Sequence record: HE978309
Strand: one strand, 5' to 3'
DNA from: Enterobacteria phage GEC-3S
Length of the DNA: 64,000 nt
Shown here: positions 936-29,082 of the stretch, one piece after another
How the letters are laid out: the number at the start of each line of letters is the position of its first letter
Position numbering within the stretch: the stretch's first letter is position 1
The notes under the pieces: generated by a model
What the model saw: the letters and a program-made list of their open reading frames with translations, nothing else
The model's database searches: none
Told to the model about the DNA's origin: nothing
Program-made: the position numbers and the translations under genes

Positions 936-964
936 AGTATAGGGGATCTCGCGATCCCCGTCAA
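936..964 (-). promoter_or_regulatory. sigma70-type early promoter (-35 TTGACG, 17 bp, -10 TATACT) with GGGGATC/GATCCCC inverted repeat in the spacer
   Basis: hexamers read directly on the minus strand upstream of nrdG. Confidence 0.5.
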
Positions 965-968
965 GCGT

Positions 969-1496
969 TTATTTTAAATTTTTTCGAATGTATTCAGACC
1001 ATTCCTTCCCTGTCATTTCGGACCCGTTCTGGAAACTGAAATATTCATACGGCATCGAGTCAAGATAAAACAGGATCATACATCGCGCCATATAATACCA
1101 ATCACGATTAAAGTAAACTACGTTATCACCAGTACCATCAACCCCTTTATCATAACCATCGCGGGTACGGGCAACCCATTGAATAGTATCATTTTTCTCA
1201 CGGATAGTAACAGGTTCCCAATATCCAGCACATCCAGCATGACCACACGAACAAGTAAGGAAATATTGTCCTTTTGCTTTGTTGTCATCCCATTCACGAT
1301 GGATTGGTTCGATCTCGTGAAACAGTGCCAAACAATCATGATTATGCAACACTGGCTTACCATCAATCAATGCATGGAATGTATACAAACGACCAGTAGA
1401 CAAATAGCTATCCTCACGCTCAACCAGTTCAATAGCAATCTTTTTAGCTCGTTCTTTGTGTCGCTGTGCTTTACGCTTACGGTTTAATGATTTCAT
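969..1496 (-). CDS. hypothetical protein (Cys/His-rich)
   Basis: track ORF; start moved to the ATG preceded by GAGGTG (MKSLNRK...). Confidence 0.6.
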   Translation of the reverse strand: MKSLNRKRKAQRHKERAKKIAIELVEREDSYLSTGRLYTFHALIDGKPVLHNHDCLALFHEIEPIHREWDDNKAKGQYFLTCSCGHAGCAGYWEPVTIREKNDTIQWVARTRDGYDKGVDGTGDNVVYFNRDWYYMARCMILFYLDSMPYEYFSFQNGSEMTGKEWSEYIRKNLK

Positions 1497-1513
1497 ATTC
1501 ACCTCACACATTA

Positions 1514-2059
1514 TCAAATGTCGCGATATAGTACATTATGAAAATGAGAACTTGCATTACCAATATTGTAGATAATAAATTCTTCATCCGGCGCTTGCGC
1601 TACAAATTGAGTATGAGCAACCGCCACAACCTTAAAAATACGATCCGTGATCTTGTGTTTAATTTCTGCTCCTACTTCCATAGGAACATATTCATTTGTT
1701 TCTGTTTCAGTCGCAAAACAGCCATCTTCTTCATAAGCACGAACAAATCGATCGCAATCAGTACGCTTAACAAATTCAAGAGTATACAATTCTCGCGAAT
1801 TGTCGGTATAGACCAATACAGAATTATTCTGATAGCGAATCACATACAGGTTATTATCATCGTCAATTACGCAAAAGCTACGGATTTGTGTTCCTTCTCC
1901 TTTACTCCAGCAGATATTAACCACCGTTCCTCTAATAAAAAAACTTTCCTTTAAATTAAAACTAGCCAATGTGCTAGCGTGCATTTTAACAACAACACCA
2001 TCGCCAATTTCCAGTTTACGAAGTTTAACTTCTTTGCTCAGTACACAAAACATCATCAT
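1514..2059 (-). CDS. hypothetical protein
   Basis: track ORF; GAGAGGA before ATG; promoter immediately upstream. Confidence 0.6.
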   Translation of the reverse strand: MMMFCVLSKEVKLRKLEIGDGVVVKMHASTLASFNLKESFFIRGTVVNICWSKGEGTQIRSFCVIDDDNNLYVIRYQNNSVLVYTDNSRELYTLEFVKRTDCDRFVRAYEEDGCFATETETNEYVPMEVGAEIKHKITDRIFKVVAVAHTQFVAQAPDEEFIIYNIGNASSHFHNVLYRDI

Positions 2060-2091
2060 TATGTTGTCCTCTCGTTGTTTTCGATGTGAGC

Positions 2092-2120
2092 ATTATACAT
2101 TAGCTAATCATGTTGTCAAC
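2092..2120 (-). promoter_or_regulatory. sigma70-type early promoter (-35 TTGACA, 17 bp, -10 TATAAT)
   Basis: exact consensus hexamers on the minus strand. Confidence 0.65.
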
Positions 2121-2124
2121 ACCC

Positions 2125-2157
2125 CAAAACGAAAAAGCCGACCCTTTCGGATCGGCT
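2125..2157 (-). terminator. rho-independent terminator after nrdD
   Basis: AGCCGAtCC-gaaa-GGgTCGGCT hairpin followed by TTTTTCGTTTT on the minus strand. Confidence 0.65.
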
Positions 2158-2162
2158 GAAAA

Positions 2163-4025
2163 TTACATGTGCTTAACGCGGTTTACCATCTCGGAGTGTT
2201 TCCCGTGGTTGAATGGACGCAGATCAACAGATCCAAGATATCCACTAACGCGACGGATAACATTCATCTTTTCCAGATTGTCATTGCCGCAATCAGGGCA
2301 AACAAAACCAGACTCGGTCGCTCTCATTTCCTTAGTAGATCCGCATACATGACATACATCAGAAGGAGTATTAACACCGAAGTAGTGCAATTTATCCATT
2401 GCATAGTCTACTACAGTTTCAAGACCTTTCAGGTTGTTTTTCATGTCTGGGAACTCAACATAAGAGATCATGCCCCCGGACGCCAGCCAGTGATAATCTT
2501 TCTCAAAGTCGATTTTCTCAAATGGAGTGACTTTCCGGTCTACGTCAAGGTGGAATGAGTTGGTGTACCAGTCTTTATCGGTAGCACCCTTAACAATACC
2601 AAATTGCTCTCGGTCCAGTCGATTAAATCGATAGCAAAGGCTCTCGGCTGGCGTACCGTAAAGACTAAACCCAAGTCCAGTTTCGTCCTTCCATTTTTCA
2701 GTATAATGACGCAAGATCTTAAGAATATGTTTACCGTATCGCTGCGCAACTTCCGAATCAAACGGATGAACACCAAACAGGACGCTCAATACCTCATGTA
2801 AACCAATATATCCAAGAGAGATACTAGCTCGACCATCTTTCAACACTTCCAAAATTTCATCGTTTTGATGAATACGGAAAAATGCACCTTCGGTATACAG
2901 TACAGGAGCAACATTGGCTTTAGCCCCTTTTAAAGCGTCTACGCGACTCATGAGCGCATCAAAGCAAATAGGCAGACGATTAGCTAGCTCTTGTTCGAAT
3001 AGCTCAATTCTGCGCATTACAGACGCTTTACCAGCACGACGCGCGGCAATAAGGGCAATACGCGGAAGATTCAGAGTAACAACACCTAAGTTATTACGTC
3101 CGTCTAATACTTCTTCGCCTTTCTCATTATGCCACACACCCAGGAAGCTACGACAACCCATCGGGCTAACCGGAACACTAGATCCAGTGATACTACGGTT
3201 ATTCTTTGCAGAGATATAATCAGGGTAAAGACGCTTACTAGAACATTCCAATGCAAGTTGCTTAATGTCGTAGTTCGGATCTTCCGGTTTAAGGTTTAAT
3301 CCTTCTTCTAAGAACATCACCAGCTTAGGAAACACCGGAGTGATACCATCTTTACCTAAACCTTTAGTTCGAACTTTCAGGATCGCTTTCTGAATCAGTT
3401 TTTCTTCCCAGCTAGTACCCATACCAAATGTTAAAGTCACAAAAGGTGTTTGACCGTTGGTGGAGAACAAAGTGTTGATTTCATATTCTAACGCTTGATA
3501 CCCGTCTAGCGTTTCTTTTTCTGTCTTCTCTTGTGCATAGAGAGTATCAGCTTTGATTCCGTAGGTTTCGGCATCAGCAAGGTGTTTATGATATGTTTTC
3601 TCAACATACGGTGCTAACACCTGATCGATGTTTGCAATTGTGGTCCCGCCATATTGATGACTTGCCACCTGTGCGATAATTTGAGCGGTTACAGCACAAG
3701 CAACGCCGATTGATTTCGGACTTTCGATTTGTGCGCTACCCAATTTAAAACCATTCTCTAGCATGTCTTTTAGATTAACAAGACAGCAGTTAGTAAACGG
3801 CATAGCGGGTGCATAATCCATATCATGATAATGAATATCACCGTCTACATGCGCTTTATAGATGTGCTCAGGTAACACGGTTTTAGCAATCTGTTTAGAC
3901 ACAGCGCCAGCAATCAGATCTCGACGTGTCGGGAATGTTCGCGCGTCTTTGTTCGCGTTCTCTTTGCTTACTTCGTTTTCTTTACCCGTTGCGATCTCTG
4001 TAATGTCTTTGATTAGTTTTTCCAT
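2163..4025 (-). CDS. nrdD: anaerobic ribonucleoside-triphosphate reductase NrdD (glycyl radical enzyme)
   Basis: 620 aa; C-terminal glycyl-radical motif RVSGYLG; Zn-ribbon CHVCG...CPDCG; AGGTGA before ATG; no intron interruption. Confidence 0.95.
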   Translation of the reverse strand: MEKLIKDITEIATGKENEVSKENANKDARTFPTRRDLIAGAVSKQIAKTVLPEHIYKAHVDGDIHYHDMDYAPAMPFTNCCLVNLKDMLENGFKLGSAQIESPKSIGVACAVTAQIIAQVASHQYGGTTIANIDQVLAPYVEKTYHKHLADAETYGIKADTLYAQEKTEKETLDGYQALEYEINTLFSTNGQTPFVTLTFGMGTSWEEKLIQKAILKVRTKGLGKDGITPVFPKLVMFLEEGLNLKPEDPNYDIKQLALECSSKRLYPDYISAKNNRSITGSSVPVSPMGCRSFLGVWHNEKGEEVLDGRNNLGVVTLNLPRIALIAARRAGKASVMRRIELFEQELANRLPICFDALMSRVDALKGAKANVAPVLYTEGAFFRIHQNDEILEVLKDGRASISLGYIGLHEVLSVLFGVHPFDSEVAQRYGKHILKILRHYTEKWKDETGLGFSLYGTPAESLCYRFNRLDREQFGIVKGATDKDWYTNSFHLDVDRKVTPFEKIDFEKDYHWLASGGMISYVEFPDMKNNLKGLETVVDYAMDKLHYFGVNTPSDVCHVCGSTKEMRATESGFVCPDCGNDNLEKMNVIRRVSGYLGSVDLRPFNHGKHSEMVNRVKHM

Positions 4026-4070
4026 TGTATCACCTATGAAAAAGCGGGATTTTCTCCCGCTCGTTGATAG

Positions 4071-4565: not shown

Positions 4566-4595
4566 AATATAATCCTCTCGTTGTTAAGTGGGAGT

Positions 4596-4623
4596 ATTAT
4601 AGCATACTCCCTTCGCATGTCAA
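4596..4623 (-). promoter_or_regulatory. sigma70-type early promoter (TTGACA, 16 bp, TATAAT) with -10 embedded in GGGAGTAT/ATACTCCC inverted repeat
   Basis: hexamers and 8-bp inverted repeat (4590-4611) read directly. Confidence 0.6.
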
Positions 4624-5798: not shown

Positions 5799-5829
5799 AA
5801 TATAATCCTCTCGTTGTTTAGATGGGAGT

Positions 5830-5858
5830 ATCTTACTACTCCCGTTTCATCATGTCAA
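5830..5858 (-). promoter_or_regulatory. sigma70-type early promoter (TTGACA, 17 bp, TAAGAT) with GGGAGTAG/ACTCCC inverted repeat around the -10
   Basis: read directly; near-identical copy at 6740-6768 and 28571-28599. Confidence 0.55.
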
Positions 5859-6421
5859 GCGTTAAATGACTTTTGGATCTCTTTCAGTTCAGCTACTTTA
5901 TAGGCGCTGAATTTAGCGTAGGTATCATGTCGAATAATTTCACTTTCAAGAAAGGTTTCCAGCCGAGATCTATTTTCAATAAGGAACTCTTTCAGGTCTT
6001 CCGCGTTCTTGATAAAGATTTTATTGTCAGTAATGTCATCTTCAATCGCAAAGGAGATAGAGCGAACTTTACCAAACAAGTTAATCAGATCTTCCAGAGA
6101 TTCTTCTTTCTTAACTGGTTTCATTTCTTCAAACTGCTTTTTAGTGATGCGTTTAAAGTATTTGCGCTCGTTTGCAGCAATCAGAACAGATGCACCTTCA
6201 TACCCATGAGTTTCTACCAGATACACACGCCCCATCGCATCAACAGTGAGAACTTTAAAGCCGTTACAAAGCACGTCATACAAGAACTTATTATGTTGCG
6301 GACATCGTTTGATAAATTCTGCGGCTGTTTCTGCACTACGGAAAGTATAGTAACGACCTCGTTCAAAAACAGCATCATTTGAAGACTTAGCCGGATACAC
6401 TTTATACATTTTCTGTACCAT
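5855..6421 (-). CDS. hypothetical protein, paralog family member (one GFKV-type repeat)
   Basis: track ORF; start moved to the ATG behind GAGGATTATATT. Confidence 0.6.
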   Translation of the reverse strand: MVQKMYKVYPAKSSNDAVFERGRYYTFRSAETAAEFIKRCPQHNKFLYDVLCNGFKVLTVDAMGRVYLVETHGYEGASVLIAANERKYFKRITKKQFEEMKPVKKEESLEDLINLFGKVRSISFAIEDDITDNKIFIKNAEDLKEFLIENRSRLETFLESEIIRHDTYAKFSAYKVAELKEIQKSFNA

Positions 6422-6435
6422 AATATAATCCTCTA

Positions 6436-6708: not shown

Positions 6709-6739
6709 TGTTGATTCTCCTTCTTGATTAGATGGGAGC

Positions 6740-6768
6740 ATTTTACTACTCCCATTTCTTATTGTCAA
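6740..6768 (-). promoter_or_regulatory. sigma70-type early promoter (TTGACA, 17 bp, TAAAAT) with GGGAG/CTCCC inverted repeat around the -10
   Basis: read directly. Confidence 0.55.
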
Positions 6769-6771
6769 CTA

Positions 6772-7551: not shown

Positions 7552-7552
7552 G

Positions 7553-8308
7553 TTATACCTCATTCAGTTCTATATCAAGTTCATTTTCAATAATATAGGC
7601 ATTAACTGCCCGTGCCGCATCATCTTCTGTGTCAAATCTTCCTATATACACACCGCGAACTTTAGCACCGTAATTACCTTGTTTTGGTACTTTGTAAACG
7701 TATCTATGACGGGAACTTGCTGCTTTTTGGAGCTTCTTGCCATATTCAGACTTTGCATATTCTATATCATCAATCTCGTTTATACAAGACCTATCACCAA
7801 AATGTTTCAACGCTGCAAGATTATATGCATACGCCGCACCGATCTCGGAGGGAAAATATCCTAAATGTATAGACTTCCCATCCAACATTATTGCACCAGT
7901 CCAATAACCTTTATTCTTATTAAACGACACACCTTTATACTTCGAATATGTTTTGCATTTGGTCTTGCTCATATTCATATTATTTTGTTTGCTTGTCGTC
8001 TCTCTAAGGTTTTCAATGCGGCTATTATAACGATCTCGGTCTTTATGATCTATATACTTAGGACAATGACCATGAAACATATGATAGATAACACGGTGCA
8101 TACGTTCGTATCGCTCGCCAGTCCATACAATACGATACCCATCGGGGGTATCACTTCCAGCTAATCCGTTTATAACACCTTTTCGGTGCGGGTGAATCTT
8201 CCACCTAAGAAAACCATCATCATAATAAAACCGTGAATGATATAAATCATATAAACGTTTATCTTCTGGAGTCTTGTGTATAACCTCATATTTTAACATT
8301 GGTGACAT
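7553..8308 (-). CDS. HNH homing endonuclease with two AP2-type DNA-binding domains (Mob-like)
   Basis: HNH core IDHKDRDRYNSRIENLRETT; AP2-like YKGVSF...GAAYAYN and GAKVRG...EDDAARAVN; paralog of the ORF at 35956-36696. Confidence 0.8.
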   Translation of the reverse strand: MSPMLKYEVIHKTPEDKRLYDLYHSRFYYDDGFLRWKIHPHRKGVINGLAGSDTPDGYRIVWTGERYERMHRVIYHMFHGHCPKYIDHKDRDRYNSRIENLRETTSKQNNMNMSKTKCKTYSKYKGVSFNKNKGYWTGAIMLDGKSIHLGYFPSEIGAAYAYNLAALKHFGDRSCINEIDDIEYAKSEYGKKLQKAASSRHRYVYKVPKQGNYGAKVRGVYIGRFDTEDDAARAVNAYIIENELDIELNEV

Positions 8309-9101: not shown

Positions 9102-9532
9102 TATCCCTTCCTCAAATAAGTTCGCTCAATCTCTACCCGTTCGAAAAAATCTTGCCAGTCGCAAGGAAAATTGCAGTTTCCGAAATGATCCTCTTTGTAA
9201 AGTTCTTTACCGGATGGCAGCTTAATATCTGTTACGCTGTAGTATCCGCAACAATCGCAATCACCATCTGTATATTCTGTTTTGGTAGGAATATCCATCA
9301 TTGCCAGATACAAAGGTACATCGTCTTGCTCAAAGTTCATGTAACCTTCATGGTCGAATGAAACAAAGTTATCATCGCCACCGAAAGGGATATAATGGTC
9401 ATAATCGGTTACAGGTTGACCGTGCAATTCCCATTCTACAATTTTAACATTACCGCTAAACTTGATACCCATAATTTCAACAAGAAAATGAGTATCGTCA
9501 ATGTAAATCTTACTAGGAGTTGGATAACCCAT
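9101..9532 (-). CDS. hypothetical protein
   Basis: track ORF; GAGGATTATATAATG leader. Confidence 0.6.
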   Translation of the reverse strand: MGYPTPSKIYIDDTHFLVEIMGIKFSGNVKIVEWELHGQPVTDYDHYIPFGGDDNFVSFDHEGYMNFEQDDVPLYLAMMDIPTKTEYTDGDCDCCGYYSVTDIKLPSGKELYKEDHFGNCNFPCDWQDFFERVEIERTYLRKG

Positions 9533-9542
9533 TATATAATCC

Positions 9543-9839
9543 TCATATCTCAGAGAATAGAATCTCTGTTAGCTTCACTGACTGCTCTCTGAATGTTAGC
9601 GTATACTCGAAAGGAAAGTCAACACCCAACTTCAAAAGAGAATAGCCTACCGCCTCTTTATGCTTATCGGTTAGGGCGATCCTAACCAATTCCCGTTGAA
9701 TCTCTTTAGGCGGTGAATGGATAGTAACACGGGTATCATGTAATGTCCAGTCACCATTTCGAATTAAGATTAACGGTTTATCATCATTGAAGATCACCGA
9801 CCCCTTTCCGGTCGGTGAGTGTTTTATACTAATCATCAA
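9543..9839 (-). CDS. hypothetical protein
   Basis: track ORF on the coding strand; start overlaps the upstream gene. Confidence 0.5.
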   Translation of the reverse strand: MMISIKHSPTGKGSVIFNDDKPLILIRNGDWTLHDTRVTIHSPPKEIQRELVRIALTDKHKEAVGYSLLKLGVDFPFEYTLTFREQSVKLTEILFSEI

Positions 9840-10050
9840 ATTCTAAGAAATATTCTGGAACGATATAACCGTTAAAGTCATTGCACTTATAAAAATGTGG
9901 TGCATTTAATGCTGGATGAGCATTAGTAAAGAGTTTACCCTCTAGAAACAGAATGTAATTAATCGGTCTAATACCGACAGAATCAGGGTCTAAACCTTTT
10001 TCTTTCAGTTCAGCCAGCGTTAAAACTCGTCCAGATCTTAACTTAGCCAT
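9829..10050 (-). CDS. hypothetical protein
   Basis: track ORF; GGGGGT before ATG. Confidence 0.55.
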   Translation of the reverse strand: MAKLRSGRVLTLAELKEKGLDPDSVGIRPINYILFLEGKLFTNAHPALNAPHFYKCNDFNGYIVPEYFLEFDD

Positions 10051-10336
10051 GATTTACCCCCAATTCATCAAGATTATGTCGCAGCATTTCAGAGTATTTT
10101 TCTACTTCCTTAATCTTAGTGTGGATCTCCACGATCTCATCCACACTATCAGAAATTTTAATGGCATTCGCGAGCGTGCTTTTACCCGCTTTCACAGTCT
10201 CTTTCATTTCAACCAACATGTCCGCGTGTTTCAATAGTAATTCTTCACGTCGAACATAAGCGGCGGTCAAAGCCTCATCAGCGATTTCTAAAGCATTTTC
10301 AGCGACACCAACAACCATTTTACGAGTAGACAGCAT
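10043..10336 (-). CDS. hypothetical protein (predicted coiled coil)
   Basis: track ORF; GAGGTG before ATG. Confidence 0.55.
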   Translation of the reverse strand: MLSTRKMVVGVAENALEIADEALTAAYVRREELLLKHADMLVEMKETVKAGKSTLANAIKISDSVDEIVEIHTKIKEVEKYSEMLRHNLDELGVNHG

Positions 10337-10350
10337 AAATTCACCTCACA

Positions 10351-10659
10351 TTATTTCACGTTAACGCCGTCATCAATCCAGCCGACGCTATTTGGTTTAA
10401 CAGTTTTACCATAGGATGCATACTTAATCAAGCATGGTTTAACATCATTATCAAATCTTCCTAAACGTACTCCCAAATCAGGAATATCCATGTATGCGGC
10501 TTTATATCCCCATGTGCCATATTCAGAATCAATCTCAACCGGACGGCCTTTAAAAGCATACACTACACCGTGACGGTCAACGATAACATAGCAATAGCCA
10601 GCCGGAAGATACACCGTTTCTCCGTAAACTTTAACTGGAGTAGCAGAAGAGATAAACAT
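10351..10659 (-). CDS. hypothetical protein
   Basis: track ORF; GAGGATTATATTATG leader; promoter upstream. Confidence 0.6.
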   Translation of the reverse strand: MFISSATPVKVYGETVYLPAGYCYVIVDRHGVVYAFKGRPVEIDSEYGTWGYKAAYMDIPDLGVRLGRFDNDVKPCLIKYASYGKTVKPNSVGWIDDGVNVK

Positions 10660-10693
10660 AATATAATCCTCACATCGTTCATTTGATGCGGTT

Positions 10694-10722
10694 ATTATAG
10701 GATAACCGCATTTTCATGTCAA
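10694..10722 (-). promoter_or_regulatory. sigma70-type early promoter (TTGACA, 17 bp, TATAAT) with -10 inside GCGGTTAT/ATAACCGC inverted repeat
   Basis: read directly. Confidence 0.6.
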
Positions 10723-10729
10723 CAGTTTT

Positions 10730-11038
10730 TTAAAAATCTTCTTCCGGTTTATATCGACCGTCATCGACTGGTTTTGGACTGAATCCTTTATGCGTGCGCG
10801 GCTTCGCTTCCGGTTTCCCCGCGATCGACAGTCCAAGCCATTTAAGAAGTTTGTATGAGTAAGCGATGATCACAACTACCCACGTTAAAGGCCATACAAT
10901 AGAACAAATGGCATATGCTCCGGTATCGACCTCTTTGGTGTCCTTGTCGAATCTGGCATACAAGCAAATTATAAGATAGGTGATCATTGCACCAGTAGGC
11001 CAAATATAAAGCACATTAACAATATCTTGTGTTGTCAC
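10730..11038 (-). CDS. small membrane protein (GTG start)
   Basis: AAGGAGG 6 nt before GTG at 11036-11038; hydrophobic segments; the track ORF extends further upstream into the preceding gene. Confidence 0.5.
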   Translation of the reverse strand: MTTQDIVNVLYIWPTGAMITYLIICLYARFDKDTKEVDTGAYAICSIVWPLTWVVVIIAYSYKLLKWLGLSIAGKPEAKPRTHKGFSPKPVDDGRYKPEEDF

Positions 11039-11048
11039 GTTATCCTCC

Positions 11049-11327
11049 TTACATGTCTTGCAGTGCATAAAAGCATTTTTCTTCGTAGTCATAGAAAATG
11101 TCAAAGTATGCTTTTTCTACATACTCACCATTGATCCAAGCGGCAGTAACAATCAGAGTGGTCCAGTTAGATCCGCTCTCAACGGTAAAGGTTTTAATAC
11201 CCAGCTTCGCTGCTAAGTCGAACGCAAACCGGACACAACCACGGCAGGAAGTGATATTGGAAGTTTTGATTTTAATGCCACCGCGAGTTTTAGAAATTTC
11301 TACTTTAGCGAAAGACAGGTTGCTCAT
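11049..11327 (-). CDS. hypothetical protein
   Basis: track ORF; AAGGAGAATCAAAATG leader. Confidence 0.6.
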   Translation of the reverse strand: MSNLSFAKVEISKTRGGIKIKTSNITSCRGCVRFAFDLAAKLGIKTFTVESGSNWTTLIVTAAWINGEYVEKAYFDIFYDYEEKCFYALQDM

Positions 11328-11369
11328 TTTGATTCTCCTTAAGAAAGTGTGTTTCGTTTTGATGTGTTT

Positions 11370-11398
11370 AGTATAGGGGATACGTGATCCCCTGTCAA
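11370..11398 (-). promoter_or_regulatory. sigma70-type early promoter (TTGACA, 17 bp, TATACT) with GGGGAT/ATCCCC inverted repeat in the spacer
   Basis: read directly. Confidence 0.55.
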
Positions 11399-11414
11399 CA
11401 ACTTTTTTATGATT

Positions 11415-11735
11415 TTAGTGAATTAACTCTACACCAAAATGAGGCACAGAGAACGCCTTACGAAACACATATTCATCATGTTTAGGAATCGCCCCTAACC
11501 GCTCTATTTCGCTCGCTGACACGATAAACCGCTTATCTGGTGCATTTACCTTATATGCTTCAACAACGCACGGAAAACGCGTTTTATCGAGTTCTGGATA
11601 GTTTTCCGAATCCATCAGGACAATGAATACCCTATTACATTGATTGTAGAATCCTGTTTTTGATTTCATCAAGTTTTCTTCTATGTTCAAGTCGTGCAAT
11701 CTTCTTTTCATGATTTCGTTGGTTCTTGTCTTCAC
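11415..11735 (-). CDS. hypothetical protein; start uncertain, overlaps upstream ORF out of frame (possible frameshift)
   Basis: track ORF with GTG start; no ribosome-binding site at any in-frame ATG. Confidence 0.35.
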   Translation of the reverse strand: MKTRTNEIMKRRLHDLNIEENLMKSKTGFYNQCNRVFIVLMDSENYPELDKTRFPCVVEAYKVNAPDKRFIVSASEIERLGAIPKHDEYVFRKAFSVPHFGVELIH

Positions 11736-11973
11736 AGTTTACCCACTCAACAAGATCTTTACCTAACTCGAAAGCCCATTCTCGGTCCTGCTTTACGTTT
11801 TGTAGGTATGGACTTTCCGACACTCGACGAAGTGATGTTGTCGTAACAAGAATGATCCCAGGAATGTTCGGATGTTCCTTTCCATATACAATAGGACGCG
11901 AGTCACTATCAATACCTTGTAAGAAGGTGTATCCTGAATCACTTAGAATCATATACTTTTTCATTTCACACAT
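11635..11973 (-). CDS. hypothetical protein (possibly 5' part of a frameshifted gene)
   Basis: track ORF; GAGGAAA before ATG at 11973. Confidence 0.45.
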   Translation of the reverse strand: MCEMKKYMILSDSGYTFLQGIDSDSRPIVYGKEHPNIPGIILVTTTSLRRVSESPYLQNVKQDREWAFELGKDLVEWVNCEDKNQRNHEKKIARLEHRRKLDEIKNRILQSM

Positions 11974-12230
11974 CACAGTTTCCTCAACCAGTTATTAAAG
12001 CTAGCAAACCATGATGCTTTTCGTGCTTCTTTGACTTTATGTGCACGTAAACCACTGAAACACCATTCATAATCATCACTGAAACATGATTCAACAGGAA
12101 CACCCGCATTTCGTAGTTCTCTGGTCGTTATCATGAATCCTTGACATAATGGGCGACCTTCAACAATGATAGGAAGTTTAACTTTTTCCATGAAAGTATA
12201 CCCAGCACGGTCAATAATTTCAATCTTCAT
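11973..12230 (-). CDS. hypothetical protein, MKIEIID paralog A
   Basis: track ORF; GAGGATTATATTATG leader; similar to the adjacent ORF over the N-terminal 60 aa. Confidence 0.6.
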   Translation of the reverse strand: MKIEIIDRAGYTFMEKVKLPIIVEGRPLCQGFMITTRELRNAGVPVESCFSDDYEWCFSGLRAHKVKEARKASWFASFNNWLRKL

Positions 12231-12248
12231 AATATAATCCTCAATTAG

Positions 12249-12446
12249 TTATACCGCCCAGGCTTCATTTGCACGAAAACACCATTCATATTCAGGAAAA
12301 TAACCTTTAATTGGTACGCCAGCTTTTTGTAGTTCCTGCGTTTCTACAAGATAATCAAGCCCATAACGACGACCTTCCACGATGATCGGAAGTTTAACGC
12401 CATTCATGAAAGAAAATCCACCGTCATCAATAATTTCAATTTTCAT
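12249..12446 (-). CDS. hypothetical protein, MKIEIID paralog B
   Basis: track ORF; GGAGA before ATG; tandem paralog of 11973-12230. Confidence 0.6.
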   Translation of the reverse strand: MKIEIIDDGGFSFMNGVKLPIIVEGRRYGLDYLVETQELQKAGVPIKGYFPEYEWCFRANEAWAV

Positions 12447-12690
12447 TTACATTATCTCCATAGATCTTTCCAGCAATATCAATTTCACCAGCGCGAACAT
12501 CTAGGATAAGATGCGGTAGGTGTATGCAGTTTTCCCACCCCACGCGCTTCATTTCTTCTACGGTAACGTAAGCCCACCCGTTCGCTGTAATAAAGTCTAC
12601 TTCAACCTTGAGAGGAAAGCAAGACTTTTCTATGTCTTCGAATCCGACAATATGTTTTGTTGTTGAATATGGAATATATCCGGTGATCAT
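12436..12690 (-). CDS. hypothetical protein
   Basis: track ORF; AAGGAGA before ATG. Confidence 0.6.
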   Translation of the reverse strand: MITGYIPYSTTKHIVGFEDIEKSCFPLKVEVDFITANGWAYVTVEEMKRVGWENCIHLPHLILDVRAGEIDIAGKIYGDNVNEN

Positions 12691-13121
12691 TTTGTGATCT
12701 CCTTATACTCAACACACCATAAGCGGGTAGCCCATGATAAACGCTCATAACGCTGGCAGAAATCGGACCATAGATATTGTGTACCGTCTTGCATAGTTGA
12801 AATATGCGTTTTCTCGCCCACTTTCACGAAAGATGTATTTGACTTCGTGATCACGACCGGAGTATATCCGAAAGCGGGTTCCAACTCAACATCTGAACTA
12901 AATGCCAATTTAACAGAATTTGTTTTTCTGACCGCTGTCCGGTTTCCTTCTGGGTATAGCACAGCAGGTTTAGCTCCTAAGCGGATAAACTCAGTGTTTT
13001 TAATGAACAGAATATCATGATAACCGTCATATTCCGACACTTCCATAGTAACAGGAAAATCGATATGTGCTAAACCTGGTAGATCTCGCATATCATGAAA
13101 TGTAGCCATAATCTTTTTCAT
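12687..13121 (-). CDS. hypothetical protein
   Basis: track ORF; start moved to the ATG behind GAGTGAGGA (MKKIMATF...). Confidence 0.55.
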   Translation of the reverse strand: MKKIMATFHDMRDLPGLAHIDFPVTMEVSEYDGYHDILFIKNTEFIRLGAKPAVLYPEGNRTAVRKTNSVKLAFSSDVELEPAFGYTPVVITKSNTSFVKVGEKTHISTMQDGTQYLWSDFCQRYERLSWATRLWCVEYKEITK

Positions 13122-13131
13122 TCTATATTCC

Positions 13132-13329
13132 TCACTCTTCTGTTTCATTTCTTTTATATGGTACTATAACAGGATTAATACAGCAAGCACCAATTACGTT
13201 ATGAGCACCACAATTTAAGCATTTATAATCATGGAACTTATTAAGGAATCGACCAAACTCATAACCGACTAGCGCCGCTTGTACTTGAGTCTCGATCTCA
13301 TCCATATCAGCCAATGTTTTAACCTTCAT
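13132..13329 (-). CDS. small Cys-rich protein (zinc-ribbon-like, CLNCG...GACC)
   Basis: track ORF; GAGGATTATACTATG leader. Confidence 0.6.
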   Translation of the reverse strand: MKVKTLADMDEIETQVQAALVGYEFGRFLNKFHDYKCLNCGAHNVIGACCINPVIVPYKRNETEE

Positions 13330-13339
13330 AGTATAATCC

Positions 13340-16762: not shown

Positions 16763-17051
16763 GTTCTCTATTCTCCATATTATGCAACATAACAAACTGT
16801 TGTGCGGCATATTCCCCCATAATAAAACACTGCTTAGAATCCATACATTTACTACGAGCGTACATCTTCATAACGTGGGCATGAAATTTCTGGCTGGTTT
16901 CAATGGAAGGAGATATTTTGTTTACATATACTATCATTGCACCGTCGAAATAATCAGTAAAGTCACCAGTTGGATCATATTGATCAGCACTGACACTTCC
17001 GACCGCAGTCAAGCATATTGCCGCTGTTAGAGTTTTACGAATAAATGACAT
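16749..17051 (-). CDS. rI: lysis-inhibition regulator rI-like periplasmic protein
   Basis: N-terminal signal/anchor MSFIRKTLTAAICLTAVGSVSA; about 100 aa; sits next to tk as rI does in T4; Cys spacing resembles T4 RI as I recall it. Confidence 0.6.
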   Translation of the reverse strand: MSFIRKTLTAAICLTAVGSVSADQYDPTGDFTDYFDGAMIVYVNKISPSIETSQKFHAHVMKMYARSKCMDSKQCFIMGEYAAQQFVMLHNMENREHEIH

Positions 17052-17120
17052 AAGTCATTCCCCCAGATTTAAAAATATTCAGTTATATTTATAATCTGGG
17101 GCTTTATTTATGATTAACTC

Positions 17121-25310: not shown

Positions 25311-25516
25311 GTCACCGTTTTGTAAAGAAACACAATAAAATCCAAGACAAGAAAGACAGTGTAAATGATCATCGTCAAGACAGTAAACATTGTCAAATTT
25401 TCATCGTTAGTTAATTCATAGTCGCCCATCCATACAATCACAAGATATAGCATTGAAAGAATGGAAGCACCTACGAAGTTAAAAAACATATTCTTGAGCG
25501 TCATATTAACAACCAT
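25307..25516 (-). CDS. small membrane protein
   Basis: track ORF; hydrophobic. Confidence 0.5.
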   Translation of the reverse strand: MVVNMTLKNMFFNFVGASILSMLYLVIVWMGDYELTNDENLTMFTVLTMIIYTVFLVLDFIVFLYKTVT

Positions 25517-26023: not shown

Positions 26024-26065
26024 TTTGATACTCCTTAGTAGTTCGTGTTTCGTTTCGATGGGTGT

Positions 26066-26094
26066 ATTATGCTATACACCCTCTCGCGTGTCAA
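26066..26094 (-). promoter_or_regulatory. sigma70-type early promoter (TTGACA, 17 bp, CATAAT)
   Basis: read directly; conserved leader ACACCCATCGAAACGAAACAC. Confidence 0.55.
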
Positions 26095-26102
26095 CAACTT
26101 TT

Positions 26103-26729: not shown

Positions 26730-26758
26730 TTTGATTCTCCCGTTTCGTTGATGGTTGT

Positions 26759-26787
26759 ATTGTAGGGGAGTTATCCTCCCCTGTCAA
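26759..26787 (-). promoter_or_regulatory. sigma70-type early promoter (TTGACA, 17 bp, TACAAT) with GGGGAG/CTCCCC inverted repeat in the spacer
   Basis: read directly. Confidence 0.5.
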
Positions 26788-26795
26788 CACTTTTA

Positions 26796-26981: not shown

Positions 26982-27027
26982 AATTTGATTCTCCGTTTAA
27001 GAAAGTGTGTTTCGTTTCGATGGGTGT

Positions 27028-27056
27028 ATTATGCTATAGGCCGGATCTGGTGTCAA
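27028..27056 (-). promoter_or_regulatory. sigma70-type early promoter (TTGACA, 17 bp, CATAAT) with A/T-rich upstream element
   Basis: read directly. Confidence 0.55.
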
Positions 27057-27080
27057 CAACTTTTTTAAAAAATTTTAGGC

Positions 27081-27110
27081 AATAAAAAAGCCACTCCGAA
27101 GAGTGGCTTA
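27081..27110 (-). terminator. rho-independent terminator
   Basis: AGCCACTC-ttcg-GAGTGGCT hairpin followed by TTTTTTATT on the minus strand. Confidence 0.65.
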
Positions 27111-27258
27111 TAGGGAAGGTAGCGAATCTTCCTTGTCTCCAACCTGCTAGCGGCCTAGCAAGTGAATGCTTTAGCGTACCGGATCGCCCACATACGCTGT
27201 AATAAATGCGGCTAGGTGACGTCCAAATCATTCTAACCGCGCTGTCTTTAGTTCACTA
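27111..27258. other. about 150-bp non-coding interval between a gene end and its terminator; candidate small RNA or structured 3' UTR
   Basis: the only track ORF here (27034-27231) spans the terminator and looks spurious; local stems GGAAG...CTTCC and GCGGCTAG...CTAACCGC. Confidence 0.3.
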
Positions 27259-27477
27259 TTATTTATATCGCTTTCTCTCGCGACGTTTTTGATCTTCTTC
27301 CTTGATAGAGTTAAATGCATCAAAAAGACACATGACACTGATAATGAACATAACCGTATTTTCTACGATATCCCACGGCTTCGCATCAGTACAGATCCCC
27401 CAAACGGTAAGAAATGCAAATAAGGCAGAAGAGATCACAAGCATGATACTTGCTAAGATATAAAAAGTCATTTTCAT
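27259..27477 (-). CDS. small membrane protein
   Basis: track ORF; hydrophobic. Confidence 0.5.
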   Translation of the reverse strand: MKMTFYILASIMLVISSALFAFLTVWGICTDAKPWDIVENTVMFIISVMCLFDAFNSIKEEDQKRRERKRYK

Positions 27478-27668: not shown

Positions 27669-27892
27669 TTCGGACGAGTCTTTTCAAACTTATACATTAC
27701 GCAACAATCTCGAATCATCCACGTAACAAGAGCACCAGTCAACACAGACAACACACAGAAGAAGTAAAACGGTCCGGTTGCATTATCAACATGAGCAAGC
27801 CATGTAAAGAAAACACATGCAAGGAATGTAAAGAACATCATAAAACACAAGAAAGCAAAATATTTTATGCTACTCATAGCGCCACCATACAA
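27653..27892 (-). CDS. small membrane protein
   Basis: track ORF; hydrophobic. Confidence 0.5.
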   Translation of the reverse strand: MYGGAMSSIKYFAFLCFMMFFTFLACVFFTWLAHVDNATGPFYFFCVLSVLTGALVTWMIRDCCVMYKFEKTRPKWGKR

Positions 27893-27980
27893 CAGATCAT
27901 AAGAAAACCCAACGCAATAAGAATTGCATCAAATTTAGTGAACTCCGGTCCACCTATCAACATCATTCGTTCCTGTTCAG

Positions 27981-28223
27981 TCATAGATCACAGAGCCATC
28001 TTAAAGCACCACATAAAGCGAGCAGAATACTAGGTATAAACGAGATCAAAACAAGTTGGCAAAAATCATCTAAGGTAACACCGGAATAGCTACCTACTGT
28101 AACAACACCGATCATCAGACACAGAAAGAAAACAAATGCAACCAGAAACAAAGTATTGCTAAACAGTTTAGTGATCATTAGACACCCCACGACGATCAAT
28201 TTCAAAAACTTTTTTATCATCAA
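27981..28223 (-). CDS. small membrane protein
   Basis: track ORF; hydrophobic. Confidence 0.5.
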   Translation of the reverse strand: MMIKKFLKLIVVGCLMITKLFSNTLFLVAFVFFLCLMIGVVTVGSYSGVTLDDFCQLVLISFIPSILLALCGALRWLCDL

Positions 28224-28371
28224 CGAAGCATGTCACAACTGCCTCGTTGACTTCCGCAAATTGTTGTGTTACCCACTTAAGGTCAGAGCGAAACAATGTT
28301 CTATTAATAACAAATGCTTTACCGATCTTATCCTTACCCATAAATTTTGCTTTAACCATATCCAATTCCAT
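28168..28371 (-). CDS. hypothetical protein
   Basis: track ORF. Confidence 0.45.
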   Translation of the reverse strand: MELDMVKAKFMGKDKIGKAFVINRTLFRSDLKWVTQQFAEVNEAVVTCFVDDKKVFEIDRRGVSNDH

Positions 28372-28380
28372 ATTATCACC

Positions 28381-28539
28381 TTATTTGCTAATCGCTAAAC
28401 CCAATCCGAAGAGAGCACCCGATGCTACAGTATACCCGAAAGTTTCAAATGCAGTAAAGATATCTAAGCCACCAGCTAACAGAGTTGCAGTAAACAGAGT
28501 ACCAGCTACGAACATAAAAGTTTTACCGATAAATTTCAT
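28381..28539 (-). CDS. small membrane protein (about 52 aa)
   Basis: GGAGAATCAAAATG leader directly downstream of promoter 28571-28599; hydrophobic; below the ORF-track cutoff. Confidence 0.45.
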   Translation of the reverse strand: MKFIGKTFMFVAGTLFTATLLAGGLDIFTAFETFGYTVASGALFGLGLAISK

Positions 28540-28570
28540 TTTGATTCTCCTTTCGTTTGTTTGTGGGGGT

Positions 28571-28599
28571 ATCTTACTACCCCCGTTTCATGTTGTCAA
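28571..28599 (-). promoter_or_regulatory. sigma70-type early promoter (TTGACA, 17 bp, TAAGAT) with GGGGGTAG/ACCCCC inverted repeat around the -10
   Basis: read directly; near-copy of the promoter at 5830-5858. Confidence 0.55.
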
Positions 28600-28605
28600 C
28601 TATTT

Positions 28606-28980
28606 TTAAGAATATTTTACTTCGTCTACAATGTCTTTCATGACATTGATTTCCATTCCGGTCAGAACACGTTGGAACATGTGCTGCACATACGCTTTCA
28701 GGTATTCATTTGATGGCTTGCTATCGAAAGTCTTTTTAGTGTAGTAGTCATCACCGAAAGCTACTGTAATTATATTTTCGTCGTCGTTCCAAGCGATATA
28801 AGCAAATTTGCCGTTATCCCAGAAGCGAGCACTAATTGCTACTTTTGTTGAATCGAATCCTACTTCGCTGTGAGATTCAAGAACTACTTGCGTGCCAGTT
28901 TCTTTATGAATGTAGTAGCGGGATACTAAGTCAAAGTTACGGGTGTAGTGACATTCGAATTTATCTTTAAACATCATCAT
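28606..28980 (-). CDS. hypothetical protein
   Basis: track ORF runs upstream through the promoter with a GTG start; start moved to the ATG behind AGGAGAATCAAA. Confidence 0.55.
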   Translation of the reverse strand: MMMFKDKFECHYTRNFDLVSRYYIHKETGTQVVLESHSEVGFDSTKVAISARFWDNGKFAYIAWNDDENIITVAFGDDYYTKKTFDSKPSNEYLKAYVQHMFQRVLTGMEINVMKDIVDEVKYS

Positions 28981-29017
28981 TTTGATTCTCCTAAGTGTGT
29001 TTCGTTTCGATATGTGC

Positions 29018-29046
29018 ATTATTCTATAGTCGTTTATGGTTGTCAA
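29018..29046 (-). promoter_or_regulatory. sigma70-type early promoter (TTGACA, 17 bp, AATAAT)
   Basis: read directly; weaker -10. Confidence 0.45.
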
Positions 29047-29051
29047 CACCT

Positions 29052-29082
29052 AAAAACAAAAAACCCCGAAAAATTTTCGGGG
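29052..29082 (-). terminator. rho-independent terminator after the 57B-like gene
   Basis: perfect CCCCGAAAA-a-TTTTCGGGG hairpin followed by a T-tract on the minus strand. Confidence 0.7.

Follow-up and report, generated by a model that had tools for sequence, protein, structure and literature searches.

The 64,000-nucleotide stretch of Enterobacteria phage GEC-3S analyzed here (sequence record HE978309; the window) carries repeated promoter-plus-leader units between its early genes, and the question is what these units are and how far they account for the mosaic gene content around them. The phage belongs to Krischvirus (RB49/phi1-type T4-like coliphages), sharing 96 to 98% identity with Sf20, RB49, and phi1, and its intergenic regions align base for base with the orthologous ones of phi1 and RB49. 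Judged by this alignment, the units are the early-promoter cassettes known as PeSLs (promoter-early stem-loops), already described from coliphages of the RB49/phi1 type. The resemblance to promoter-early stem-loop elements of T4-type phages proposed in an earlier note is thus borne out and goes beyond mere likeness, as this is the very genus where PeSLs were defined. PeSLs were defined, function tested, and modeled in phi1 and RB49, with nrdD and ORFan 84.1 of this region included (Arbiol et al. 2010, Genome Biol Evol 2:140, PMC2839356), and were extended to T4/PST and KVP40/nt-1 (Comeau et al. 2014); the cassette finding is therefore already known. The window cassettes show no essential difference from those PeSLs, which have an A/T-rich tract, a σ70 consensus promoter, a G/C-rich stem-loop at variable position, and a Shine-Dalgarno sequence plus ATG, cluster ahead of small ORFs in hyperplastic regions, and have been proposed as recombination linkers. 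With a probability of about 0.9, the units are PeSL cassettes of the Krischvirus hyperplastic region, each a compact early expression unit. Points absent from Arbiol et al. (2010) are the two classes of ribosome-binding site (RBS), of which one alone is cassette linked, the RegB/S1-like character of that RBS, the quantified minority of indels in the region that are cassette bounded, and the finding that the leader also occurs in phages beyond the T4 superfamily. Extra interest lies in this short transcribed leader, common, nearly letter for letter, to the early promoters of unrelated coliphage families.

A gene-by-gene catalogue of the minus strand from 1 to 29100, requiring a σ70-type promoter with at least 10 of 12 hexamer matches, gave 17 cassettes in intergenic gaps and an eighteenth, degenerate one (9/12), each with its promoter 28 to 46 nt upstream of an ATG (Table 1). 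This matches the earlier count of at least 17 minus-strand intergenic sites, the range of which ran from the −10 box of the first cassette (936) to the terminator of the last (29082). The sole cassette beyond this range lies between baseplate genes 8 and 9, at the head of a three-ORF island that includes a methyltransferase-like gene; 18 of the 19 cassettes thus cluster in the first 29.1 kb (P = 7e−6). The upstream tract of the cassettes is A/T rich (0.76 versus 0.60 in the background; P = 4e−7). For the gene downstream of the cassette at 6709-6771, the true start is likely the ATG at 6708. The uniform terminator-promoter-leader layout initially described was over-simplified: an upstream hairpin and T-run terminator was present in only 6 of 18, with the stem-loop lying between −35 and −10 in three, overlapping −10 in seven, and absent or atypical in two, and the −10 box read (T/C)ATAAT in only 8 of 18.

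Table 1. Cassettes, promoter-less elements, and associated genes in the window
Feature	Coordinates	Strand	Details
Cassette	894-968	-	TTGACG-17-TATACT (964-936); stem-loop GGGGATC/GATCCCC between hexamers; long leader; class B RBS (AGGAGAATCAAATATG)
Cassette	2060-2162	-	Intrinsic terminator (2157-2136) and T-run; GTTGACA-16-TATAAT (2119-2092); leader ATCGAAAACAACGAGAGG
Cassette	4566-4623	-	TTGACA-16-TATAAT (4623-4596); 8-bp stem-loop overlapping −10; class A RBS
Cassette	5799-5858	-	TTGACA-17-TAAGAT; stem-loop GGGAGTA/TACTCCC overlapping −10; class A RBS; upstream of frd.2
Cassette	6709-6771	-	GTTGACA-17-TAAAAT; 9-bp stem-loop over −10; class B-like RBS
Cassette	10660-10729	-	GTTGACA-17-TATAAT; stem-loop GCGGTTAT/ATAACCGC over −10; class A RBS
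Cassette	11328-11414	-	GTTGACA-17-TATACT; stem-loop GGGGAT/ATCCCC between hexamers; long leader; class B RBS
Cassette	13625-13725	-	Terminator (13719-13698); GTTGACA-16-TATAAT; class B RBS; downstream boundary of gp38 indel
Cassette	14782-14869	-	GTTGACA-17-CATAAT; no stable stem-loop (z = +1.1); long leader; class B RBS
Cassette	16036-16135	-	12-bp terminator (16133-16106); GTTGACA-17-CATAAT; class B RBS
Cassette	19831-19916	-	TTGACT-17-TATTAT; atypical long-range stem enclosing −10; GGAGAAATTAATG RBS; upstream of vs.1
Cassette	20680-20738	-	GTTGACA-18-TAATAT; stem-loop GGGGGTA/TACCCCC over −10; class B RBS
Cassette, degenerate	21895-21980	-	Terminator (21971-21947); weak promoter TTGGCT-17-TATGAT (9/12)
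Cassette	26024-26102	-	GTTGACA-17-CATAAT; stem-loop GGGTGTAT/ATACACCC over −10; long leader; class B RBS
Cassette	26730-26795	-	GTTGACA-17-TACAAT; stem-loop GGGGAG/CTCCCC between hexamers; class B RBS
Cassette	26982-27110	-	Terminator (27109-27088); A/T tract; GTTGACA-17-CATAAT; long leader; class B-like RBS
Cassette	28540-28605	-	GTTGACA-17-TAAGAT; stem-loop GGGGGTA/TACCCCC over −10; class B RBS
Cassette	28981-29089	-	Terminator (29083-29063); GTTGACA-17-AATAAT; long leader; class B RBS
Cassette beyond the range	42973-43073	+	Terminator; GTTGACA-16-TATAAT (43014-43041); leader
Class A ribosome-binding region	6419-6433	-	GAGGATTATATTATG; no promoter
Further promoter-less class A copies	9530-9544, 12228-12242, 13327-13341, 18855-18869, 25086-25100, 30504-30518, 32406-32420		
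Hairpin-only gap	4026-4070	-	No promoter; upstream of nrdD
Other promoter-less hairpin gaps	14506-14559, 23019-23080, 24275-24335		First lies upstream of gp38
gp38 tail-fiber adhesin gene	13726-14505	-	The one cargo gene with cassette-bounded presence/absence
regB endoribonuclease gene	19917-20339	-	Own RBS GGATAATAAAA (20349-20339)

Two leader classes had been reported to recur in the cassettes, and this held for one of them. Leader B (GGAGAATCAA preceding the ATG) was strictly promoter proximal, found at 12 of 18 promoter-proximal genes and 0 of 61 other genes (P = 4e−10). Leader A (GAGGATTATATTATG) was found at 3 of 18 and 7 of 61, respectively (P = 0.69), mostly in gaps of 10 to 21 nt without any promoter, and by its sequence context is a free-standing ribosome-binding region and no part of the cassette. 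The RegB/S1 cleavage consensus of T4-type early mRNAs is GGAGRAYARAA (Durand et al. 2006; Uzan and Miller 2010), and leader B matches it at 10 of 11 positions. As in RegB/S1 sites, GGAG lies in the Shine-Dalgarno sequence of early promoter-proximal cistrons and is followed by an A-rich single-stranded tract (predicted folding of the leader, −1.8 versus −5.8 kcal/mol, i.e., unstructured), and the window encodes regB. However, position 8 of leader B is an invariant C, whereas T4 sites prefer A, which is among their most conserved positions (Durand et al. 2006). In vivo, RegB reportedly cleaves the GGAU Shine-Dalgarno sequence of RB49 regB (Durand et al. 2006; Uzan and Miller 2010), which corresponds to GGAUAAUAAAA in the window. 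The cassette RBS GGAGAAUCAAA, present in two thirds of the cassettes, is thus a putative RegB/S1 cleavage site, through which the first cistron could be switched on via host polymerase and off via the phage nuclease.

At least five unrelated lineages of enterobacterial phages carry the leader 18-mer CATCGAAACGAAACACAC in this same promoter setting (23 matches versus 2 for a shuffled control). With the leader present in these families as well, RegB would not be the only reason for its existence. Among the T7 early promoters, A1 has a C-rich discriminator followed by ATCGA at +1 and a U-poor initial transcript, A2 and A3 carry TTGACAACATGAA, matching the cassettes at 2060-2162 and 28540-28605, A2 also has GTAAGATAC, matching the latter, and A3 has a small palindrome over its own −10. 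Whereas the window cassettes are scattered as a family among ORFans, the T7 promoters stand as three in tandem before one early operon and have no coupled terminator, and their leaders diverge after about 6 nt.

The repeats had also been offered as an explanation of the mosaic content of the region, namely, an inserted adhesin, a methyltransferase cassette, and tandem paralogs. Comparison with five relatives gave eight indels of ≥25 bp, of which one (at most two) was cassette bounded, not significantly above the fraction of sequence that cassettes occupy. Only the adhesin fits: gp38 with its flanking hairpins is missing from G5211, an identical gp38-less junction occurs in 13 other records, the breakpoint coincides precisely with the −35 box in the cassette at 13625-13725, and the empty site carries a different cassette subtype. 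For the methyltransferase cassette the explanation is not supported: next to dam there is a single indel, a gene of 729 bp for an HNH-AP2 homing endonuclease, and divergence in the flanking 3′ end of dam looks like co-conversion. The tandem-paralog deletions at ORF073/074 (G5211 and Makalu_002) break inside paralogous coding sequence, outside any cassette, and stem from a crossover there. Cassette-driven gene exchange can therefore be demonstrated in the window, by sequence comparison, for gp38 only.

That the cassettes are chance promoter-like matches in A/T-rich intergenic DNA has next to no probability and is already refuted by the motif and promoter counts. For weak (9/12) hexamer matches the excess over shuffles is modest (59 versus 44.8 and 73 versus 47.9), but the strong ones (≥10/12) number 47 in the window against 18.3 ± 4.2, and the leader motifs and long repeat blocks likewise stand many standard deviations above shuffles. 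GTTGACA occurs 23 times (9.2 expected), 17 of these on the minus strand of 1-29100; the leader A sequence has 12 matches at ≤2 mismatches (0.25 expected), AAGGAGAATCAAAATG has 7 (0.05 expected), CATCGAAACGAAACAC has 5 (0.73 expected), and the 25-mer TTTTTCGTTTTTAGGTGTTGACAAC, running from terminator tail to promoter, has 4 (0 expected). The cassettes are also orthologously conserved, and they make up the top five direct-repeat families of an unbiased repeat search. Convergent optimization, in which each strong early promoter and RBS is driven to one optimum by E. coli RNA polymerase and ribosomes, with recombination incidental and explaining little mosaicism, is possible but doubtful. It would account for the same initial transcribed sequence following early-type promoters of unrelated families with quite different −35 regions and spacers, and for the discriminator/ATCGA start and TTGACAACATGAA common to T7 A1, A2, and A3. 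Within the genus, nucleotide diversity (π) among six genomes was 0.003 in the −35 box, 0.006 in the −10 box, 0.011 in the RBS region, and 0.022 in the leader, whereas third codon positions reached 0.078 and the promoter spacer 0.073. This pattern points to purifying selection on hexamers, RBS region, and leader while the spacer drifts neutrally, and it supports the PeSL reading as well. Seven of the eight indels are accounted for by homing endonucleases, by crossover between paralogs, or by RBS regions that are duplicated. Against convergence, identity spans positions without known constraint (the cassettes at 26024-26102 and 26982-27110 share 89% identity across 61 nt), so that similarity is not confined to the hexamers, the 25-nt block recurs, and an identical 18-mer across families exceeds a loose optimum. 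The position of the gp38 breakpoint and the swapped subtype also argue for recombination, as do PeSL mini-circles, shown experimentally, with junctions between −10 and the Shine-Dalgarno sequence (Arbiol et al. 2010, PMC2839356).

The embedded stem-loops admit another reading, rather unlikely in our view, as 3′-end stabilizers or processing sites of upstream mRNAs, or as DNA-level (hairpin/cruciform) protein targets for promoter control or recombination. A U-run is missing after 10 of the 16 stem-loops, namely, the embedded ones, which are therefore not canonical intrinsic terminators; these stems end at −1 or earlier and so are missing from the RNA of their own promoter. Similar promoter-embedded hairpins are present in T1-like phages, and the GGGG...CCCC motif has been speculated to bind a recombination protein (Arbiol et al. 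2010, PMC2839356). However, all seven −10-overlapping stems pair at 7/7 positions with their own arm and at about 4/7 with the arms of other cassettes, and among relatives loops are hypervariable while stems are kept; for stems whose sequence changes but whose pairing is kept, a role in structure is a better fit than recognition of a specific sequence by a protein. In addition, the PeSL211/210 stem-loop reduced lacZ read-through in vivo as strongly as rrnB T1, and experiments on three PeSLs at other places in the phi1/RB49 genomes showed promoter and terminator activity (Arbiol et al. 2010, PMC2839356). Extrapolating from those three, the window cassettes would function as promoters and terminators, with each site presumably in use and the embedded stems probably terminating as well.

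As PeSL cassettes, the units are ordered as an A/T-rich upstream tract, a near-consensus σ70 promoter presumably served by unmodified host RNA polymerase immediately upon infection, one G/C-rich stem-loop, a leader, and an RBS. The stem-loop is either a canonical upstream terminator or promoter embedded, the embedded form being present only in read-through RNA from upstream, and either placement is suited to halting or attenuating incoming transcription. The leader is short, A-rich, U-poor, and predicted to be unstructured, beginning AUC(G/A)AAAC. Cassettes with near-identity over 25 to 60 nt could serve as occasional crossover points, inserting, deleting, or swapping the intervening genes. 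Morons (Hendrix et al. 2000), like integron gene cassettes, are small accessory genes with their own promoter and/or terminator that are gained or lost as units; morons have no conserved flanking repeat used for exchange, and integron cassettes require an integrase and attC sites, whereas in the window the repeat is the expression signal itself, and we know of no dedicated recombinase for it. Separately, a candidate structured RNA of ∼170 nt was observed at 27080-27267.

The minus strand carries every gene from ~250 to 31100 of the window according to the phi1 and RB49 annotations, in the order nrdG, nrdD, frd.2, 49, nrdC, dam, many ORFans, 38, rI, tk, vs, regB, more ORFans, dmd, 57B/57A, 1, and 3. 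These genes were tiled and every upstream region was printed, with promoters scored by their matches out of 12 to the -35 and -10 hexamers. Seventeen gaps contained a sigma-70 promoter (-35 TTGACA, 16-18 nt spacer, TATAAT-like -10) with a score of 10-12/12, including four at 12/12. An 18th cassette (21895-21980) had a degenerate 9/12 promoter downstream of a good terminator. The claim of an earlier note that at least 17 intergenic promoter sites lie on this strand was therefore borne out, and its limits, 936 and 29082, fell on the first cassette's -10 box and the last cassette's terminator. The -10 box ended 28-46 nt before the ATG in 18/18 cassettes. Genes downstream of the cassettes are mostly annotated as hypothetical in phi1 and RB49. 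Megablast searches with 10000-20000 and 800-25000 identified ~57 genomes of the genus Krischvirus (Straboviridae, RB49/phi1 type) that shared 94-98% identity with the window; Shigella phage Sf20 was the closest (97.2-97.7%), and RB49 and phi1 were both at 95.8%.

Promoters with at least 10/12 hexamer matches numbered 47 in the window, compared with 18.3 +/- 4.2 in shuffles, and 23 copies of GTTGACA were present versus 9.2 expected, 17 of them on the minus strand of 1-29100. Two leader strings recurring before the ATG were both 50- to 140-fold above expectation. The first 29.1 kb held 18 of the 19 cassettes in the window (p = 7e-6), and the cassettes made up the top five direct-repeat families in an independent repeat search. 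Similarity limited to the hexamers, which the earlier note had named as the outcome that would undo its reading, was not what was found: CATCGAAACGAAACAC (5 copies versus 0.73 expected), a 25-mer linking the terminator tail with the promoter (4 copies versus 0 expected), and a 61-nt block shared at 89% identity by c26024 and c26982 (cassettes are named by the start coordinate of their intergenic gap) all extend beyond them. The observation of repeated cassettes is confirmed.

Elements of this type were defined as promoter-early stem-loops (PeSLs) in phi1 and RB49, which have 52 and 51 copies, respectively (Arbiol et al. 2010). In that study, promoter and terminator activities were demonstrated by lacZ fusions, PeSL mini-circles joined at points between the -10 and the SD/ATG were detected, and PeSL-mediated modular shuffling was proposed. 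The promoter fusions comprised a wild-type clone of PeSL206/205 and clones of PeSL193/192 bearing -35/-10 point mutations, and the stem-loop of PeSL211/210 was used in the terminator/attenuator test; all three PeSLs lie outside the window. The same authors named nrdD and the phi1 ORFan 84.1 as PeSL associated and HPR located, and both belong to the cassette region of the window. The PeSL idea was later extended to T4/PST and KVP40/nt-1 (Comeau et al. 2014). All of the sequence-level features that define PeSLs were identified here, namely, near-consensus sigma-70 promoters; a stable, usually G/C-rich stem-loop whose location varies among upstream, -35, inter-box, -10, and downstream positions; a 3' end formed by a Shine-Dalgarno sequence and start codon, in intergenic sites mostly before ORFans in hyperplastic regions; an A/T-rich upstream tract (mean A+T in the 20 nt upstream of promoters, 0.76 vs 0.60 background; p = 4e-7); and base-for-base alignment with phi1 and RB49. 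The element class is thus already known, and the interpretation in the earlier note is partly supported. As submitted, the finding re-identifies a published class within the genus of its description and matters little, although it can serve annotation by providing transcription-unit boundaries for ~80 early genes and correcting at least one start codon. In the phi1 annotation, ORF060 begins at an ATG within the -10 box of c6709 (window 6709-6741); the real start is likely the ATG at 6708, which follows a class B-like RBS and agrees with the annotations of RB49, G5211, and Sf20.

Each cassette was folded, and the cassettes were laid out in register. The earlier note had proposed a single arrangement of terminator, A/T-rich tract, and promoter, which holds in six cassettes (2060, 13625, 16036, 21895, 26982, and 28981) and fails in the remaining ones. 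Stable stem-loops were present in 16/18 cassettes, with 6 upstream terminators, 3 stems between the boxes, and 7 over the -10; these position subclasses are those described for PeSLs (Arbiol et al. 2010). The six upstream hairpins and a hairpin at 42973-43000 were G/C rich with an immediate U-run, as in intrinsic terminators. No U-run follows the stem in the ten promoter-embedded cases, where ATC.. or the -10 box follows instead, and the terminator label for these stems therefore depends on the lacZ assay published for a single PeSL stem-loop and not on their sequence. Where the stem straddles the -10, the loop contains the first four -10 bases and the 3' arm stops at ~ -1. These seven stems vary in sequence (GGGAGTA, GGGGGTA, GGGTGTA, GCGGTTA...), and because they occupy two registers, a fixed-column covariation test was replaced with a comparison of own-arm and cross-cassette pairing. 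Each stem arm paired 7/7 with its own partner versus ~4/7 with partners from other cassettes, and between relatives the stems were retained while the loops were hypervariable; the pairing itself is thus under selection. A promoter-less hairpin, GCGGGTAG...CTACCCG at 24275-24335, also has a conserved stem and a loop that is hypervariable among relatives (pi 0.13, above the neutral estimate).

Stem-loop positions in the cassettes, and indels or replacements of at least 25 bp relative to five related phages
Feature	Position	Strand	Description	Basis
Stem-loop between hexamers	c894, c11328, c26730	minus		folding
Stem-loop straddling -10	c4566, c5799, c6709, c10660, c20680, c26024, c28540	minus		folding
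Atypical long-range stem	c19831	minus		folding
Stem-loop absent	c14782	minus		folding
Indel 1	7566-8294	minus	HNH_3 + AP2 homing-endonuclease gene between nrdC and dam; away from cassettes	alignment
Indel 2	~12208-12431		Deleted in G5211 and, from other breakpoints, in Makalu_002; breaks fall within the 5' coding parts of paralogs ORF073/ORF074	alignment
Indel 3	13114		229-bp gene inserted in Makalu_002, with duplicated stop/RBS/start segment on its flanks	alignment
Indel 4	12878-13114		Segment replaced in G5211	alignment
Indel 5	13686-14561		gp38 and flanking hairpins missing from G5211; break exactly at GTTGACA	alignment
Indel 6	16136-16363		Extra phi1 sequence (ORF084.1) within long gap	alignment
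Indel 7	G5211 only		621-bp HNH_3/AP2 gene between vs.8 and endolysin gene	alignment
Indel 8	25266-25444		Replacement within small membrane-protein genes	alignment

Nucleotide diversity (pi) was calculated from an alignment of the window with phi1, RB49, G5211, Sf20, and Makalu_002. Values were 0.003 in the -35 boxes, 0.006 in the -10 boxes, 0.011 in the 16 nt ending at the ATG, 0.022 in the leader, 0.033 in the tract upstream of the -35, and 0.073 in the promoter spacer, with 0.078 at third codon positions. Purifying selection acts on the hexamers, leader, and RBS, and the spacer evolves neutrally. In G5211, a 15-nt deletion between ACACA repeats turns a long leader into a short one.

Two leader classes had been proposed as cassette components; both recur, and only one is tied to promoters. 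Class B (core GGAG[AT]AT[CT]AA) lies ahead of 12/18 promoter-proximal genes and 0/61 other genes (Fisher p = 4e-10), whereas class A (GAGGATTATATTATG, up to 2 mismatches) lies ahead of 3/18 and 7/61, respectively (p = 0.69), and occurs mainly in promoter-less gaps of 10-21 nt. Class A is thus a recurrent translation-initiation region outside the promoter cassette. RegA was considered as an explanation for class A, as the motif is A+U rich and contains AUUAUG like the T4 RegA operators, yet the motif is also found before gp2, which is a late gene in T4, and the suggestion was kept as an idea only. A MotA/middle-promoter reading of AATGCTTGAC at 19893 was set aside, given that RB49 reportedly has no middle mode.

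The published consensus for RegB/S1 targets, GGAGRAYARAA, spans 11 single-stranded nucleotides (Durand et al. 2006; Uzan and Miller 2010). Class B (GGAGAAUCAAA) agrees with this consensus at 10/11 positions, as does GGAGAATCAAA, found in 9 cassettes, position 8 being invariably C in both. The window encodes regB (Pfam REGB_T4 match, 1e-48), whose own RBS is GGAUAAUAAAA; for RB49 regB, in vivo cleavage at its GGAU Shine-Dalgarno has been reported (Uzan and Miller 2010). Leaders are 22-40 nt in length, 49% A and 18% T, and predicted to be unstructured (-1.8 kcal/mol versus -5.8 for random segments of the same length). The setting is that of RegB sites, with a predicted single-stranded leader in the translation-initiation region of promoter-proximal genes in a RegB-encoding phage. 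From the class B consensus match, the presence of regB, and the predicted lack of leader structure, we infer that the cassettes could carry a built-in RegB off-switch. RegB is not mentioned in the PeSL paper (Arbiol et al. 2010).

A 55-nt probe comprising the -10, leader, and RBS identified 6-11 matches in each listed Krischvirus genome, plus ~46 other phage records. Outside Krischvirus, each inspected match kept its orientation and had a promoter-like site before it and an ORF start after it, as seen in Pseudotevenvirus leB (TATATT ACACAC ATCGAAACGAAACACACTTAGGAG), Rtpvirus IME253 (TATTAT CTTTCC ATCGAAACGAAACACACTTACTAAGGA), and Badaguanvirus IME347. The exact 18-mer CATCGAAACGAAACACAC was found in 23 IMG/VR contigs, compared with 2 for a shuffled 18-mer. 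A common context (-10 box, ~6 nt, ATCGAAAC.., SD, ATG) was shared by 20 of the 23; these contigs were mostly 45-51 kb, the Drexlerviridae size class, and several had hairpins between the boxes or over the -10. One contig with the 18-mer was related to the ~350-kb Munch/7t3-like jumbo phages, and another had no relative in the phage collection outside its 57-nt promoter site. The 18-mer thus occupies the same place in at least five otherwise unrelated enterobacterial phage lineages: an unclassified group, Krischvirus, Pseudotevenvirus, T1-like Drexlerviridae, and the Munch/7t3-like jumbo phages. In the T1-like IME253, a promoter motif of its own was matched 16 times, and the same cassette layout followed at most of these sites (AATAGCAC-N3-4-TTGCTAAA, often a stem-loop, TATAGT, ATC(G/A)A(A/C)AACGA, SD, ATG), and at several of these matches hairpins were embedded in the promoter, a PeSL-like architecture. 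Similarities also extend to T7. In the T7 record, the A1 transcript begins ATCGAGAGG behind a C-rich discriminator, A2 and A3 have TTGACAACATGAA in common with c2060 and c28540, A2 also carries the GTAAGATAC of c28540, and a palindrome overlaps the -10 of A3.

No match to the 55-nt promoter/leader was identified in 5,426 E. coli genomes. As this search is blind to the 18-mer alone, bacterial genomes (596 Gbp) were scanned for the exact pattern, which recovered 13 copies, 11 of them out of context, one in a T1-like phage contig, and one at a Rahnella locus. The latter is a chromosomal locus in Rahnella rivi with the phage leader in promoter context, possibly a prophage or captured module. The T1-like phage genome formed a 46,669 bp contig in a 'Nitratidesulfovibrio liaohensis' assembly and is probably contamination in that unrelated bacterium.

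The cross-family matches indicate that intragenomic homology is not the sole source of similarity beyond the hexamers, part of which reflects something that early promoters share across many enterobacterial phages. The U-poor, unstructured leader of the cassettes (AUCGAAACGAAACACAC...) may be a functional module in its own right, one that also exists beyond T4-type phages. Its recurrence could stem from transfer between phage families or from constraint by a host factor, and the matches fit either account; an interaction with the host that holds the leader fixed might involve, for example, promoter escape, RNase E avoidance, or S1 recruitment. Taken further, PeSL-type units could constitute a pan-coliphage "early expression module", exchanged between families or fixed by a specific host interaction, to which the GGAG/A-rich RBS would add an extra built-in off-switch in RegB-encoding phages. 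We regard this reading as tentative and place it slightly below even odds (roughly 0.45). The leader sequence was not found in literature searches, in which figures were not searchable. If it proves functional, the shared leader could matter more than the cassettes themselves: it would point to an unexplained requirement common to the early mRNAs of enterobacterial phages, and expression design could gain a compact, portable 5' UTR from it. The cross-family leader, the cassette-tied RegB-type RBS, and a candidate small RNA at 27080-27267 are leads that merit modest follow-up.

The earlier note had also suggested that recombination between cassettes may account for the mosaic content of the region and called for gene content to be compared across related phages. 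The comparison was run on the five aligned relatives and yielded eight events, either indels or replacements, of 25 bp or more (see table). A cassette was involved in 1/8 (gp38) and loosely in a second (ORF084.1); cassettes cover ~5% of the region, and cassette-linked indels were not in significant excess in this small panel. Recombination at a cassette is supported for the gp38 adhesin, where the break is at the -35 box, but not for the methyltransferase, where a homing endonuclease is inserted, nor for the tandem paralogs, where the break is in coding sequence. Most gene-content differences here are from homing endonucleases and paralog crossover rather than cassette shuffling, with gp38 as the exception, yielding a sober estimate of the PeSL recombination model. 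By their breakpoints, the ORF073/ORF074 deletions are the product of unequal crossover.

The gp38-empty site in G5211 (19145-19205 of that genome) has a different cassette subtype, with the stem-loop between the hexamers. A contiguous junction lacking gp38 was identified in 14 records (G5211 and 13 others), and the alignment of the remaining records breaks at the ORF080 stop. gp38 was also the only part of 800-25000 matching phages outside the genus, with ~80% nucleotide identity to T-even-type adhesins. The gp38 case is therefore solid and supports the published PeSL model. The gp38 gene (13726-14505) lies among early genes between hairpins, and no late-promoter motif was found directly upstream of it. 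The one cassette outside the first 29.1 kb heads an island at 42973-44484 (plus strand; promoter at 43014), which lies between baseplate genes 8 and 9 and contains two small ORFs and a gene for a 279-aa protein with an NPPF methyltransferase motif, after which TATAAATA occurs at 44525. The island is fixed in 56/59 records and is therefore uninformative as a second test of shuffling.

The homing-endonuclease gene adjoining dam (7553-8308, minus strand; 251 aa) overlaps the dam 3' end, matches HNH_3 (2e-13) and AP2 (1e-8), and was present in the window and Sf20 only, among the five relatives compared. An HNH domain with a DNA-binding domain, presence or absence between relatives, and a divergent neighboring target gene are characteristic of free-standing HNH homing endonucleases, and the divergent dam 3' end beside the insertion suggests co-conversion. 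The additional HNH_3/AP2 gene of G5211 (27727-28302 of that genome, corresponding to window ~23096) has an AP2 match below the Pfam curated cut-off; the 3' end of the endolysin gene beside it is divergent, and it looks like a second homing event in the region. The gap at 16136-16363 (228 nt) has no credible ORF and drifts at the neutral rate (pi 0.073), with ORF084.1 in phi1 only; it is probably a decaying gene remnant.

A candidate structured RNA of ~170 nt was observed at 27080-27267 (minus strand). Downstream of a late-promoter-like TATAAATA at 27267-27260, non-coding sequence runs for 150 nt and ends at a terminator at 27109-27088. In G5211 and Makalu_002, indels of 1 and 2 nt break the reading frame of the nominal 65-aa ORF at this location, and diversity is low (pi 0.0045, where third codon positions in the neighboring genes have 0.02-0.03). 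The predicted fold has a free energy of -60 kcal/mol (z = -3.5). The sequence was found in all 57 Krischvirus records at 96-100% identity and nowhere else. No Rfam family was identified over the whole window at gathering thresholds, and a permissive scan of 27040-27300 gave sub-threshold matches only, driven by the terminator hairpin. A sigma-70 promoter is absent upstream of rI (17052-17120), where TATAAATA (17093-17086) lies within a CCCCAGATT...AATCTGGGG hairpin in a near-invariant gap (pi 0.005).
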